Translations under genes and position numbers: made by a program
Shown: one piece after another, positions 6,103 through 9,925 of the stretch
Layout of the letters: the number at the start of each line of letters is the position of its first letter
Numbering within the stretch: the stretch's first letter is position 1
The notes under the pieces: generated by a model
What the model saw: only the letters and a program-made list of their open reading frames with translations
The model's database searches: none
Told to the model about the DNA's origin: nothing
Source: Candidatus Heimdallarchaeota archaeon
GTDB taxonomy: Archaea > Asgardarchaeota > Heimdallarchaeia > Heimdallarchaeales > Heimdallarchaeaceae
DNA: 10,412 nt
Reading direction: 5' to 3'
Assembly: GCA_016840095.1 (NCBI GenBank)
Contig: JAEOSZ010000018.1
Coordinates: forward strand, 1 to 10,412

Positions 6103-7398
6103 ATGATGTTCAAGGAAGAACTTATTGATCAAATCAGAGCTGTATTCCCAAGAGCAGTTACTGATTATACAGGGCGTAAGCGTGCTTTCTTTGATAATGG
6201 AACAGCAACACTTGTAGTTGACAATGCTGCAAAAGCAGAAGCTGTAGCTAGAATCAATTGTAGTGCAAATGTTGGAGCTATTTTTAATGAATCCAAACTA
6301 GCAACCGATACAATTCAAATGGGAAGGCAAGCCATTACTGATTTCTTAAATGCCCCTAGTCCAGCTACTATTATCTCAGGAGAATCTGCAACGTCTTTAC
6401 TCTTTAACTTAAGTTATGCCTTAGGTAAGGAACTTACAGGTAATGAAAATATAGTAACAACAGATTATGAGCATTATACTAACGTTGATCCTTGGGTGGA
6501 GTTAGAACGAAGAGGGAAAGTGGATAAGGTTAGGTTTGCTAAGCTGAACATGGAAGAGGGAACACTAGATATGGACCATCTTCAAGAATTAATAGACTCT
6601 AACACAAAAATCGTCACAATAACTGGAGCTTCAAACATGCTAGGAACCATAAGTCCGTTAGAAGAAATTGGAAAACTAGCCAAAGAAGTTGAAGCTTACT
6701 TTATTATCGATGCAGTTCATCATATCCCTCATGGTCCAACTGATGTTCAAGCTCTAGATTGTGATTTTCTTGTTTTCTCAGGATACAAACTCTTTGCACC
6801 TCATGGAAGTTATCTCTATGGTAAAGAAGAACATCTTGAAAATCTCCAACCTTATAAAGTTAGAACTGCCCCAACAACACCACCTGGAAAGTATGAGTGG
6901 GGAACTAGAAATCAGGCAACTTTTGCAGCTATAAGTGGTGTAATGGAACATCTTCTTTGGATTTCTAGTGAAGTAGAAACTAATTACTCCAAAGAATATA
7001 GACAATTTGAGGATAACAAACGTGCATTGAAAATTGCAATGGATGCCATACAGAAGTACGAAACAGAGTTTTCCAAAGCTATACTTACAGGTTACGATGA
7101 TGCCCCAGGTTTGTTAGATATGCCTAAGGTTACTATATATGGTTTAACTGACTTAAACAGATTAAGTGAGAGAGACCCTACTTTTTCCTTTGAGGTAGAA
7201 AATGTTCCTGAAGAAAAAATAGTAAATCATCTATGGAAAGAAGGTGGGATTGCAGCTCGCGCTGGTCATTATTACTCTTATGCTCAAGATATTTACAATA
7301 AGCAAAAAATCGTTAGAATTAGTTTGGTACACTATAACACTCTTGAGGAAATCAAAACATTTCTAAAAACTCTAGATGAGTTATGTAAACAAAATTAG
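6103..7398 (+). CDS. Class-V PLP-dependent enzyme, cysteine desulfurase-like (VC1184/TIGR01976-type, no catalytic Cys)
   Basis: IRAVFP...FFDNG, EHYTNV.PW, ASNMLGT, IDAVH, FSGYKLF (PLP Lys), E.GT, and RISLVHYNT. RAGHYY stands where SufS has RAGHHC. Confidence 0.88.
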   Translation: MMFKEELIDQIRAVFPRAVTDYTGRKRAFFDNGTATLVVDNAAKAEAVARINCSANVGAIFNESKLATDTIQMGRQAITDFLNAPSPATIISGESATSLLFNLSYALGKELTGNENIVTTDYEHYTNVDPWVELERRGKVDKVRFAKLNMEEGTLDMDHLQELIDSNTKIVTITGASNMLGTISPLEEIGKLAKEVEAYFIIDAVHHIPHGPTDVQALDCDFLVFSGYKLFAPHGSYLYGKEEHLENLQPYKVRTAPTTPPGKYEWGTRNQATFAAISGVMEHLLWISSEVETNYSKEYRQFEDNKRALKIAMDAIQKYETEFSKAILTGYDDAPGLLDMPKVTIYGLTDLNRLSERDPTFSFEVENVPEEKIVNHLWKEGGIAARAGHYYSYAQDIYNKQKIVRISLVHYNTLEEIKTFLKTLDELCKQN

Positions 7399-7428
7399 GA
7401 TACATTTTACTGGTAAATAGATAGATGG

Positions 7429-7516
7429 AAAAAGGAAGCTAGCTCTACTAAGCTTGCCAAATCAACAATAAGAATGCAACGTCTGAACCACCAAGCAGAG
7501 TAGGCAAGCTAGCTTC
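7429..7516 (-). ncRNA. Candidate structured small RNA (~82-88 nt rod-like hairpin), family unknown
   Basis: A perfect 10-bp terminal helix, two further 5-bp helices and a G-U-rich upper stem. TTTATATA lies at -29..-22 with a U/G initiator, and the 3' end reads CUUUUU. There is no expression evidence. Confidence 0.45.
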
Positions 7517-7608
7517 AGTAGGATATGAAGAATAGACTATATAAACACAAAAAAATGTCAAATTCCCCCTCAGAGAGGTTTTTAACTATACTAAAGATAG
7601 AACAGAAA

Positions 7609-7685
7609 TGGCGCCGTTGGTAGGACTCGAACCTACGACCGGTCGGTTAACAGCCGACTGCTCCACCGAACTGAGCTACAACGGC
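7609..7685 (-). tRNA. tRNA-Asn(GTT), CCA encoded, no intron
   Basis: Reverse complement GCCGTTG TA GCTC AGTTCGGTG GAGC A GTCGG CTGTTAA CCGAC CGGTC GTAGG TTCGAGT CCTAC CAACGGC G CCA; all four stems pair. Confidence 0.97.
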
Positions 7686-7720
7686 AGCCTTTAGGTTACA
7701 TTCGTTCTTCTTTCTCTTTC

Positions 7721-7737
7721 TTTTTAAACCTTTTTTT
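7721..7737 (-). promoter_or_regulatory. BRE/TATA promoter of tRNA-Asn (the T7 run reads A7 on this strand)
   Basis: The minus strand reads AAAAAAAGG-TTTAAAAA, with the TATA 36-43 nt upstream of the mature tRNA 5' end. Confidence 0.6.
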
Positions 7738-9021
7738 CTATTCTCTAATTTCAATTCCAGTTTTTTCAAGTGCATCATAAACCAAATTATTAATTCGGAA
7801 ACGTTCTAGAGGAAAAATCCAGTCACTAGTCTCCGGGCAATATTGTGTGAGAGTTATAATAATCAATTCATTTTTTGGGTCTATGTCAAAAAGTGTACTC
7901 AAAGCACCAGCCCAACAGTACCAACCTATGCCATTTCTAAAAATATTTTTGGTTTTCTTGACTAGAACGCCTAACCCAAATCCATATCCCTGGTTTCTTT
8001 CAATTGATTCGGAATCTTGATATGGAACGTATTGCATATCGAGATATGTTTTGTTGTTTGGTAAATGATTAGAAGTCATTAGCTCTATTGTTTCTTTGGT
8101 TATAATTTGCTTATCTTCGTACATCCCCTTATTTAGCATCATAACACAGAATTTCAGATAGTCATCTAATGTAGAAACTAATCCTCCACCTCCTGATAAG
8201 AACTTTATTTTGTGTTTGAATCCTTCAAAGATAGCTCCTTCGACTTCTATCAATTGTTTTTCTTTATTCTTTTGGTATACTTTTGGCAATCGATCCCATT
8301 TCTCTTTAGGAACATAAAAATCCGTATCACTCATCCCCAGCTTATCAAATATTTTCTCTTTAAGAAAAATATCCAGCTTCTTTCCTGATGCTTTCTCTAT
8401 TAAATAACCTAAAAGTTCATGATTGAAACCATACCACCAATGTGCTCCTGGTTCAAATGCAAGAGGTAGTGATGCGAGTTTTTTACTGAATATCTCTAAT
8501 GAATCCATTTCAGGATATATATTAAGTTTATATCTTAATCTGTTATTTCCCTTTAATCCAAATTTTTCCCCATATAAAATATCAATTGGAAGTTTTGCAT
8601 AATCACCGTAGCTTAAACCAGATGTGTGTGTAAGTAGATGTTTAATTGTTATTTCATTTTTAGCATCCTCTAAGACTACCTTACCGGTTTTCTTGTCATA
8701 AGATTTCAATACTTGTGGATTTTTGAATTCAGGAAGAAATTTACTGATGGGATCATCCAGTTCAAATTTTTCCTCCTCATAAAGAATTAAAGCAGCTGAA
8801 CAAGTAATTGGTTTTGACATAGAATACATTCTAAATATATCATCAAAAGCAATAGGTATTTCATTTTCTTTATCTTTCCATCCAAATTTATCACAATAGA
8901 TTATTCTATCTTTATGATAAACAGTACACAAGACACTACCAGTAATATCTTCTTCTATGTACTTCTGGAACTCTTTTGTGAGTTCAGCAAATGAATCTGG
9001 ACTTATCTGATTATTAATCAT
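7738..9021 (-). CDS. Serine hydrolase, beta-lactamase/class C fold (family VIII esterase-like)
   Basis: FRMYSMSK (SxxK), LELDDPI-like FELDDPI, HLLTHTSG, PLAFEPG..WWYG, SGGGGL.ST..DY, and WAGA. The start is placed at ATG 9021 (MINNQISP) because the ORF-track extension to 9162 overlaps the divergent gene and a TATA-like TTAATTAA lies about 26 nt upstream of 9021. Confidence 0.9.
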   Translation of the reverse strand: MINNQISPDSFAELTKEFQKYIEEDITGSVLCTVYHKDRIIYCDKFGWKDKENEIPIAFDDIFRMYSMSKPITCSAALILYEEEKFELDDPISKFLPEFKNPQVLKSYDKKTGKVVLEDAKNEITIKHLLTHTSGLSYGDYAKLPIDILYGEKFGLKGNNRLRYKLNIYPEMDSLEIFSKKLASLPLAFEPGAHWWYGFNHELLGYLIEKASGKKLDIFLKEKIFDKLGMSDTDFYVPKEKWDRLPKVYQKNKEKQLIEVEGAIFEGFKHKIKFLSGGGGLVSTLDDYLKFCVMMLNKGMYEDKQIITKETIELMTSNHLPNNKTYLDMQYVPYQDSESIERNQGYGFGLGVLVKKTKNIFRNGIGWYCWAGALSTLFDIDPKNELIIITLTQYCPETSDWIFPLERFRINNLVYDALEKTGIEIRE

Positions 9022-9114: not shown

Positions 9115-9789
9115 ATGGATATCAAAGCTCAAGAAGAGCTGTTTGAGAAGAATTGGGAGCACTATAGTAAAATAATGTTAGAAGACAGAGTTCCTCTTTT
9201 TGATGATAATGTAATTTATTCTGGACGAAAACTCTATGATAAAAATAATCCTCCATTTCTTGCATCTATTGTTAAAGTATCTCCAAAACTATGGGAGAAT
9301 CTTCAGCAAATACAAGCTGAGTTTGACAGAATAGACTCTAGACACACGTATTTTCACCCCATTTATTATCACATTACTCTCAAAGAATTTGGTTGGGAAG
9401 ATCAAGTAGATCTTAAAGAAATTACTGAAAAAATGACTAAAATACTAAGTGATTTCCCGCCTTTTAATTTAGAAATTAGAGGGATTAATTGTTTTGAAAG
9501 AATTATCTTTGCACAAGTATTTGATAAGAAAAAATACCTTGAATCTATTTTCAACAAGATTTTCGAAGAGTTTCCTCATCTGGAAAAGTACTTCCCCTTT
9601 TATCTTCCACATGTTTCTCTAACAAGAATTGAGACCACTGAAGCTAGAAACATAATCAGTAAGATAAATGAGAAGTACAGAGAAGTAAATATAGGCTCTA
9701 TGAAAGTAGAAAAAATCCAAATTGTATCAGCAAGACCATATTTGTCAGTCGGTAGAATTGAAATCAAAGAGCATATCGAACTTAAATAA
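9115..9789 (+). CDS. 2H phosphoesterase superfamily protein (2'-5' RNA ligase / RNA 2',3'-cyclic phosphodiesterase-like) with N-terminal extension
   Basis: Two H-x-T/S motifs, YHITL and PHVSL, about 80 aa apart, plus PPFNLEIRGINCF. Confidence 0.85.
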   Translation: MDIKAQEELFEKNWEHYSKIMLEDRVPLFDDNVIYSGRKLYDKNNPPFLASIVKVSPKLWENLQQIQAEFDRIDSRHTYFHPIYYHITLKEFGWEDQVDLKEITEKMTKILSDFPPFNLEIRGINCFERIIFAQVFDKKKYLESIFNKIFEEFPHLEKYFPFYLPHVSLTRIETTEARNIISKINEKYREVNIGSMKVEKIQIVSARPYLSVGRIEIKEHIELK

Positions 9790-9850: not shown

Positions 9851-9925
9851 GCCTCGGTAACTCAGTGGTAGAGTGATTGACTTGTAATCAATTAGTCGAG
9901 GGTTCAATTCCCTTCCGAGGCTCCA
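9851..9925 (+). tRNA. tRNA-Thr(TGT), CCA encoded, no intron
   Basis: GCCTCGG TA ACTC AGTGGTA GAGT G ATTGA CTTGTAA TCAAT TAGTC GAGGG TTCAATT CCCTT CCGAGGC T CCA; U73 discriminator as in archaeal tRNA-Thr. Confidence 0.97.

Follow-up and report, generated by a model that had tools for sequence, protein, structure and literature searches.

A predicted family of small RNAs closed by an invariant 9-bp terminal clamp in a genus of Candidatus Heimdallarchaeota

The hairpin downstream of tRNA-Asn in the window, the whole 10,412-nucleotide stretch of a Candidatus Heimdallarchaeota contig that was analyzed, is predicted from sequence to belong to a multi-gene family of small RNAs with invariant termini, which the earlier note on this DNA had missed. 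The discrete ~85-nt archaeal ncRNA proposed in that note, with a promoter and terminator of its own, is supported as a predicted gene by block conservation, a promoter, and a U-run, and both the predicted gene unit and the family are well supported. At least 54 distinct members, 58-88 nt long and of about a dozen types, start with GAAGCUAGC and end with GCUAGCUUC, which would pair to form a 9-bp clamp. The member in the window is referred to as type A. Its host MAG, G000, comprises 3.44 Mb at 33% GC and is 89% complete.

The minus-strand letters quoted in the earlier note were confirmed at 7516-7429, and the RNAfold minimum free energy (MFE) structure of this segment reproduces the fold drawn there by hand: a 10-bp helix, a UGC bulge, CUACU/AGUAG, a 2x2 loop, GCUUG/CAAGC, wobble pairs, and UCAG/UUGA (Table 1). 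The MFE of the minus strand is -32.4 kcal/mol, compared with -22.0 +/- 3.0 kcal/mol in 200 dinucleotide shuffles, none of which is as good (z -3.45). Folding of both strands against shuffles, as the note had suggested, gives a divided answer: the minus strand beats all shuffles, but the plus strand, with an MFE of -26.5 kcal/mol that is weaker in absolute terms, has a similar z of -3.84. Folding alone therefore leaves the strand undecided, and the assignment to the minus strand is made because of the promoter, the U-run, and the wobble substitutions described below. The 10-bp terminal helix forms as drawn in the genome of origin, but its 10th pair, U10-A73, is lost in orthologues, which have A, C, or U opposite U10, and the apical pairs 29-57, 34-52, and 36-51 are likewise not kept. 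The predicted conserved structure is the 9-bp clamp, helices P2 and P3, and a largely open apical region of ~35 nt.

Table 1. Predicted type A clamp RNA, its parts, and flanking elements (window coordinates)
Feature	Position	Strand	Remarks
T-run	7549-7555	-	upstream of TATA box
GTG triplet	7546-7548	-	conserved; upstream of TATA box
TATA box TTTATATA	7538-7545	-	-29 to -22 from +1, from sequence; kept in ten orthologues
Predicted type A clamp RNA	7429-7516	-	+1 = G 7516; stem end 7435; likely 3' end within U5 run
Clamp 5' arm GAAGCUAGC	7508-7516	-	common to 54 distinct members; carries all 18 wobble-type deviations
UGC bulge, 3 nt	7504-7506	-	precedes P2 5' strand
P2 5' strand CUACU	7499-7503	-	pairs 14-18 with 68-72 invariant, 10 orthologues
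P3 5' strand GCUUG	7492-7496	-	pairs 21-25 with 61-65 invariant
Invariant 22-nt segment, apical 5' side	7470-7491	-	RNA positions 26-47; invariant in 10/10 orthologues
P3 3' strand CAAGC	7452-7456	-	partner of GCUUG, invariant pairs
P2 3' strand AGUAG	7445-7449	-	partner of CUACU, invariant pairs
Clamp 3' arm GCUAGCUUC	7435-7443	-	altered in 1/54 members (collected at <=1 clamp mismatch)
U5 run	7429-7433	-	likely archaeal termination signal; kept with following CCAUCU in all orthologues
tRNA-Asn(GUU)	7609-7685	-	ARAGORN and Rfam; 92 nt upstream of RNA start; separate from RNA

The promoter lies exactly where the earlier note had placed it, with TTTATATA at -29 to -22 from G 7516 and a T at -1. 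The U5 run after the stem is also present, although it begins one base (C 7434) past the last pair at 7435 and not two. The caveat that no purine-rich BRE precedes this TATA box can be softened, as all promoters of the family, together with that of tRNA-Asn, have a conserved triplet rich in G immediately before the T/A box. From this box, an RNA of ~85-88 nt with predicted ends would be transcribed from G 7516 into the U5 run. The features by which a stand-alone archaeal ncRNA gene is recognized in sequence (a TATA box some 26 nt before a start at a purine, an oligo-U stop, and stronger conservation than in the flanks) are all present at the locus. As previously stated, the RNA is GC-richer than its flanks (0.40-0.41 versus 0.26-0.33 in non-tRNA flanks) and holds no credible ORF: among frames of >=20 aa, only a 37-aa TTG frame and a 32-aa plus-strand spacer frame are present. 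The 37-aa frame begins upstream of the predicted transcription start, and a small-protein product was rejected because the frame is unconserved and the sole ORF starts upstream of that point. The statement that the RNA matches no recognized family holds as well, in that an Rfam search of 7300-7800 at E <= 10 returned only tRNA and chance matches far below threshold; ten loci of other family types searched with Rfam 15 at E <= 1 gave nothing on the RNAs. ARAGORN finds no tRNA or tmRNA at the clamp RNA, and only tRNA-Asn and a tRNA-Thr (9851-9925) in the window.

Type A was compared across ten sequences, from seven genomes (the own genome and six congeneric ones) and three metagenome contigs. 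A block from ~7556 to 7415 (about -40 to +100) is 92-94% identical in the six congeneric genomes and is present in the three metagenome contigs, and the 82-nt RNA core shows 98% mean column identity over the 10 orthologues. Outside the block the sequences diverge, and upstream of ~-45 the own genome is unalignable with the others. The 141-nt element is single-copy in its own genome, by which a dispersed identical repeat there is ruled out. Clamp pairs 1-9 are 100% standard or wobble in the type A orthologues; two C-to-U changes in the terminal helix yield U·G pairs and one U·G becomes U-A, while the remaining changes affect the base opposite U10, the 2x2 loop, and the apical 3' strand. Conservation and covariation in relatives, both of which the earlier note had put forward as checks, thus part company: ten orthologues exist, but they contain 0 compensatory pairs, and shuffles equal the observed values. 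Double-sided covariation is absent from type A because the orthologues are too similar. The 22-nt segment on the apical 5' side is a candidate functional surface. It holds a Shine-Dalgarno-like GGUGG and is partly common to type B and to the diverged A' forms, and the strand opposite it (7460-7469) varies among the 10 orthologues.

The adjacency of tRNA-Asn to the type A RNA is specific to this sub-clade. On the other side, a convergent PLP (class V aminotransferase) gene has its stop codon at 7398, ~30 nt past the U-run, and a beta-lactamase-family gene is a further neighbor. A hairpin that sits between a tRNA 92 nt upstream and a convergent stop codon could be the terminator or 3'-UTR hairpin of the PLP gene, which the earlier note had itself raised against its proposal, or a trailer of tRNA-Asn. 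In three congeners, however, tRNA-Asn is directly followed by the convergent aminotransferase gene and the hairpin is absent, so the hairpin is neither the PLP gene's nor the tRNA's own. No T-run follows the hairpin on the plus strand, a conserved TATA box of its own is found at the canonical distance, and relatives of the RNA occur at unrelated loci; a terminator or trailer is scarcely tenable. In two genomes, the tRNA-Asn body is located 3.7-4.5 kb upstream through an insertion and only a 12-nt tRNA 3' remnant adjoins the type A RNA, which keeps its promoter.

Several further features of this locus were noted in passing. The insertion that splits the pair in one genome (~3.7 kb; L214:51-1952, G024:C139) encodes a 633-aa protein with a Cas12f1-like TNB (TnpB-type) domain and also holds a 259-aa ORF without a Pfam match; a similar gap of 4.4 kb between tRNA-Asn and the type A RNA is seen in G010:C105. 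In G002, G011, and G022 (L018, L021, and L022), a family-like promoter, CTTTATATA, lies downstream of tRNA-Asn at the same spacing and is followed by GAAGCUUCG, which runs into an apparent protein-coding gene. The family promoter and 5' end may have been donated by such loci, or left behind in them as a relic. In the window, a gene of the 2H-phosphoesterase/LigT-like (2'-5' RNA ligase) family (9115-9789, plus strand) lies 1.6 kb from the RNA and adjoins tRNA-Thr. This linkage is not kept in relatives, in which tRNA-Thr lies ~0.9 kb from tRNA-Asn.

The family was reached through weak BLAST matches to the promoter and the first 30 nt of type A, which led to four loci whose resemblance to it is confined to the promoter, 9-11 nt at the start, and 9-10 nt at the end. 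The exact pattern GAAGCTAGC-N40-70-GCTAGCTTC is present in 18 of the 25 genomes of the genus, with zero matches to the reversed-pattern control, and when one mismatch is allowed, 21 of 24 congeners have it, as does one genome of a sister genus. Four members of four types are encoded in G000, on C100 (type A), C150 (230-308), C11 (24944-25005), and C32 (21406-21465). The hallmarks of the family are the same promoter spacing, a G at +1, the 9-bp clamp, and a G-poor interior peculiar to each type. For 45 of 55 sequences, the orientation follows from a T/A box that occurs on just one side and at a constant distance; among the 52 members scored, a TTTWWA box starts at -29 in 29 and between -27 and -33 in 40. 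The promoter-sense orientation corresponds to the G-poor strand (12.7% G, 38.5% U, 24% C), and a pyrimidine-rich tail follows. In L034 (G004:C53) and L042 (G006:C190), the type F RNA is followed ~57 nt later by a tandem arrangement of another promoter and another clamp RNA, this one type E-like.

Across the 54 members, the nine clamp pairs show 20 deviations, of which two are mismatches and 18 are wobbles (G·U or U·G) when read in the promoter-sense strand. All 18 wobbles are on the 5' arm and the 3' arm is changed once, although 4 of the 9 possible wobble-generating changes would fall on the 3' arm. The wobbles are estimated to represent ~10 independent events (A2G, A3G, C5U, A7G, and C9U in different types). 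Because members were gathered at <=1 clamp mismatch, part of the clamp's invariance is a product of the search, whereas the type of change and the arm on which it falls are not; 8 of the 9 clamp pairs are kept in a type J homologue that was retrieved by BLAST and not by the pattern. Pairs 10-13 show no preference for pairing across the family and are unconstrained, which makes the module exactly 9 bp. That 18 of the 20 deviations are wobbles on the sense strand argues for selection on RNA rather than DNA, and a strand-specific constraint on the clamp at the RNA level is shown by this substitution pattern.

The same pattern bears on the possibility that the family is a miniature mobile or selfish DNA element, bounded by inverted termini of 9 bp, whose copies have spread within the genus. 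Such an element would account for dispersed copies whose inverted termini are identical and 9-bp perfect, as are the terminal repeats of a MITE, for the presence/absence polymorphism at the tRNA-Asn locus, for tandem copies in two genomes, and for the narrow range. The interiors, however, differ between types, each type being single-copy and syntenic, and the deviations are wobble-compatible on one strand. The promoter lies outside the inverted termini at a fixed distance and on one side only, and no transposase is associated with the neighbors of the own-genome copies. Neither in interior nor in copy number does the family resemble a MITE, G000 carrying four copies of four types with unrelated interiors. 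The MITE or dispersed repeat that the earlier note had envisaged as a refuting outcome was therefore not what was found: only 9 + 9 terminal bases and the promoter are shared by types that are single-copy and syntenic, with strand-specific wobbles. A mobile-element origin is very improbable.

Most types are panhandles: inside the clamp lies a largely unstructured stretch that often contains an AUCCCC-like box. No other type is as structured as type A. The A' forms share their 5' half with type A, and in a consensus structure of A plus A' the clamp alone is common, the interior being kept as sequence. Types A, A', B, and B' have a CUGC-N-GGUGR element in common. The convergent neighbor of types C, I', and E is the same ThiS-like gene, which makes these types positional orthologues; their interiors are very different and their clamp is the same.

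At individual loci, the following arrangements were observed. In G000, the gene beside the clamp RNA at C11:24944-25005 is ThiS/SAMP-like (C11:25013-25303) and ends Gly-Gly-stop; the corresponding loci are L040, L052, L054, L036, L191, and L194. A UUAUCC-type box of types C, I', and E is complementary over 6-9 bp to the GGAUAA end of the ThiS-like mRNA, and the first T-run of type C is ~97 nt downstream, so that a read-through transcript would be fully antisense to the 3' end of that gene. Type D (G013:C12:79186-79245, L033; G024:C141, L060:151-210) lies ~88 nt past the 3' end of 23S rRNA on the opposite strand, and its transcript would therefore be antisense to read-through of the rRNA operon. 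Types B (G000:C150:230-308) and J (L184 and L192) each hold 8-10 nt that copy the anti-Shine-Dalgarno, as UCACCUCC or as a one-off variant of it; in type B, a small hairpin pairs this copy with a GGUGA strand that resembles a Shine-Dalgarno.

Paralogues whose interiors are unrelated have kept the clamp in sequence and not only in pairing, with next to no variation in its 3' arm. A helix that served only to protect the ends should have drifted and covaried among paralogues; instead, the interiors have been replaced and the clamp, above all its 3' arm, has not, which suggests that the clamp is a common handle. The reading favored here, as fairly probable, is that each member is an independently transcribed, stable ncRNA in which the clamp would be that handle and the interior a specificity module. 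The 9-bp clamp, GAAGCUAGC paired with GCUAGCUUC, would close a type-specific interior and be followed by the pyrimidine-rich tail. The handle would be read by a shared protein or by processing or stabilizing machinery, or the 3' arm might have a second, single-stranded role. The part assigned to the interior agrees with the ThiS-side positional orthologues, which differ inside and have the same clamp, and with conservation of interior sequence within a type even without structure. It counts against a handle that proteins seldom recognize a perfect A-form helix by its sequence. In type A, P2 and P3 would form a rigid stalk presenting the invariant strand at 7491-7470.

If the clamp is instead an exonuclease shield and termination aid whose identity reflects recent duplication, the members could be plain trans-acting, base-pairing sRNAs, type A acting through a short seed (for example, pairing of GGUGG with the 3' end of 16S rRNA or a C-rich partner). 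The interiors are G-poor, C/U-rich, and mostly unstructured, like those of seed-type sRNAs, and the family is young. The Shine-Dalgarno consensus of the genome is GGTGA, the CUGC-N-GGUGR element is common to A, A', B, and B', and the anti-Shine-Dalgarno copy in types B and J is significant (z -2.5 to -3.5). Against such sRNAs, the interiors of positional orthologues have diverged almost completely while their clamps are identical, so drift since duplication cannot explain the clamp, and the 3' arm is far more constrained than pairing needs, with 18 of 18 wobbles on the 5' arm. Type A gives no anti-Shine-Dalgarno signal (z +0.9), and its longest complementarity to the genome is 17 nt, within the shuffle range of 17-24. 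Plain base-pairing sRNAs are thus an unlikely explanation. Family-wide anti-Shine-Dalgarno mimicry was rejected (mean z -0.6, with significance only in types B and J), as was an extended antisense target of type A in its own genome, and for complementarity to 23S rRNA, the rRNA compared (the MAG itself yielded no rRNA, 16S included), no type is convincingly above shuffles. A telomerase-like template function for the AUCCCC box was also rejected, as there are no G-rich tandem arrays and GGGGAT is in mild excess (798 versus 586 expected). The near-total invariance of type A, its rigid stalk, and the lack of an extended target make a protein-bound particle or a short-seed binder more likely than a long antisense RNA.

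The clamp could also serve a precursor, either because the type A hairpin is cut by an RNase III homologue or because the clamp juxtaposes the two ends for circularization by ligation. RNase III is uncommon in archaea. A bacterial-type homologue (Pfam Ribonucleas_3_3, up to 98 bits) is encoded at G000:C145:40783-41154 and in 35 other genomes of the order. The gene is present in G000 and in all 13 genera of the order, type A offers ~20 stacked pairs, and the 5' and 3' ends are set side by side by the clamp. Circular forms of several archaeal small RNAs are known (PMC12558985). Most members, however, have the 9-bp clamp alone, which is too short for RNase III, and no bulge-helix-bulge motif is present at the clamp; a precursor is quite improbable. 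As a family-specific partner, RNase III was rejected, since its presence in all 13 genera gives no correlation with the family.

Returning to the handle, a bolder and decidedly tentative extension is that the clamp RNAs would be RNA subunits of an undescribed RNP system of Heimdall-type Asgard archaea, in which a factor reads the clamp and the interior picks the target. Such a factor would recognize above all the near-immutable 3' arm, and the exchangeable interior would decide what is bound. Among the candidates examined, no partner protein for the clamp was identified, and the genes neighboring the four own-genome copies have no family in common. An Argonaute guide was rejected, as no PIWI domain is present in G000 (89% complete). 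If true, the RNP reading would provide an independently arisen functional counterpart of the eukaryotic Y, vault, and Class I RNAs or of guide-RNA families.

As delimited by the searches made, the predicted range of the family is one genus labelled Candidatus Heimdallarchaeota with traces in a sister genus. In a pattern scan of 185,579 species genomes, the non-Heimdall matches examined are without the promoter and of unrelated GC, as expected of chance. Five pattern matches on viral contigs are likewise without promoter and of foreign GC, so virus-borne copies were rejected, and so were viral targets, because nothing viral matches the invariant 22-mer. Four further genera of the taxonomic family, scanned at <=3 mismatches, yield no credible member and counts close to those of controls; BLAST with type J finds no members outside the genus, and the orthologous ThiS-like locus in other genera carries none. 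The three-mismatch matches in the sister genus belong to a normal CRISPR array with an unrelated 37-nt repeat. The arrays in question (L202:3156-3766 and 14564-15959, G041:C46) have a 37-nt repeat with a period of 73-75 that contains GGAGCUAG and a CACCUCC stretch, a likeness to the clamp that is probably coincidental. A CRISPR-derived RNA was rejected, as the termini of the clamp RNAs are inverted and not direct and an 18-mer spacing scan of G000 finds no array. The narrow range would also fit a young, possibly selfish element.

No earlier description of this clamp RNA family could be found, and within the searchable papers the literature holds nothing relevant on the motif or on Asgard sRNAs and almost nothing on Asgard ncRNAs. 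A promoter-driven small RNA family can thus be defined from sequence alone, by a signature that others can search for, and it merits an Rfam entry as well as masking and annotation in Heimdallarchaeial MAGs. To our knowledge, its pattern of an invariant 9-bp clamp, changes restricted to wobbles, and an immutable 3' arm is unusual among archaeal sRNAs. A protein that reads the clamp would point to a new RNP in an archaeal lineage labelled Heimdallarchaeota; failing such a reader, the family would still offer regulators that are tractable to study and whose interiors change rapidly from one species to the next.

The clamp RNAs resemble several known systems in part. Y RNAs are paralogous RNAs of ~80-110 nt in which a conserved terminal stem is the protein handle for a variable, pyrimidine-rich interior and a U-rich 3' end. 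The clamp RNAs are similar in size, in the terminal stem formed by both ends, in the variable pyrimidine-rich interior, and in the U-rich 3' end. They differ in that their clamp is without the bulged helix read by Ro60, Rfam gives no Y_RNA match, and TROVE/Ro60 (PF05731) is absent from G000 (89% complete), although it was detected in the control genomes Deinococcus and Bacteroides; a Y-RNA/Ro60 reading was rejected, as G000 has no TROVE domain. In archaeal box C/D and H/ACA guide sRNAs, conserved elements near both ends bracket a variable guide sequence. With these, the clamp RNAs share end elements around a variable part, similar sizes, and stand-alone genes, but they have no C/D boxes, K-turn, pocket, or ACA, and Rfam snoRNA models do not match. 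By eye, the sense-strand sequences contain no RUGAUGA/CUGA pair or K-turn, and in type A only a 3-nt bulge and a 2x2 loop, with no pseudouridylation pocket, are present and the 3' flank C-UUUUU-CCAUCU is without ACA. Many clamp RNAs display an unpaired AUCCCC-type box between helices, as C-rich seed sRNAs of the RsaE/RoxS and Yfr1 types do, but type A has no C-rich box, and the invariant clamp is without a counterpart there.

The nearest described architecture that could be documented is, by analogy, that of the Class I RNAs of dictyostelid social amoebae, which are 42-65 nt long and encoded by multi-copy, stand-alone genes with a shared upstream element at a fixed distance (PMC7919456). A short stem joins their 5' and 3' ends, with highly conserved terminal residues around a variable interior, and little is understood of what these RNAs do; the stem keeps its structure but varies in sequence, and a hallmark 11-nt motif lies next to the 5' stem (PMC7919456). 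The likeness to the clamp RNAs (58-88 nt) is one of architecture only and comprises the terminal stem, the conserved ends, the fixed-distance promoter element, and the variable interior. Unlike in Class I RNAs, the 9-bp stem of the clamp RNAs is itself invariant and no universal motif follows the 5' arm. As one group is eukaryotic and the other archaeal, with no sequence similarity between them, the relationship is one of analogy and not of homology.
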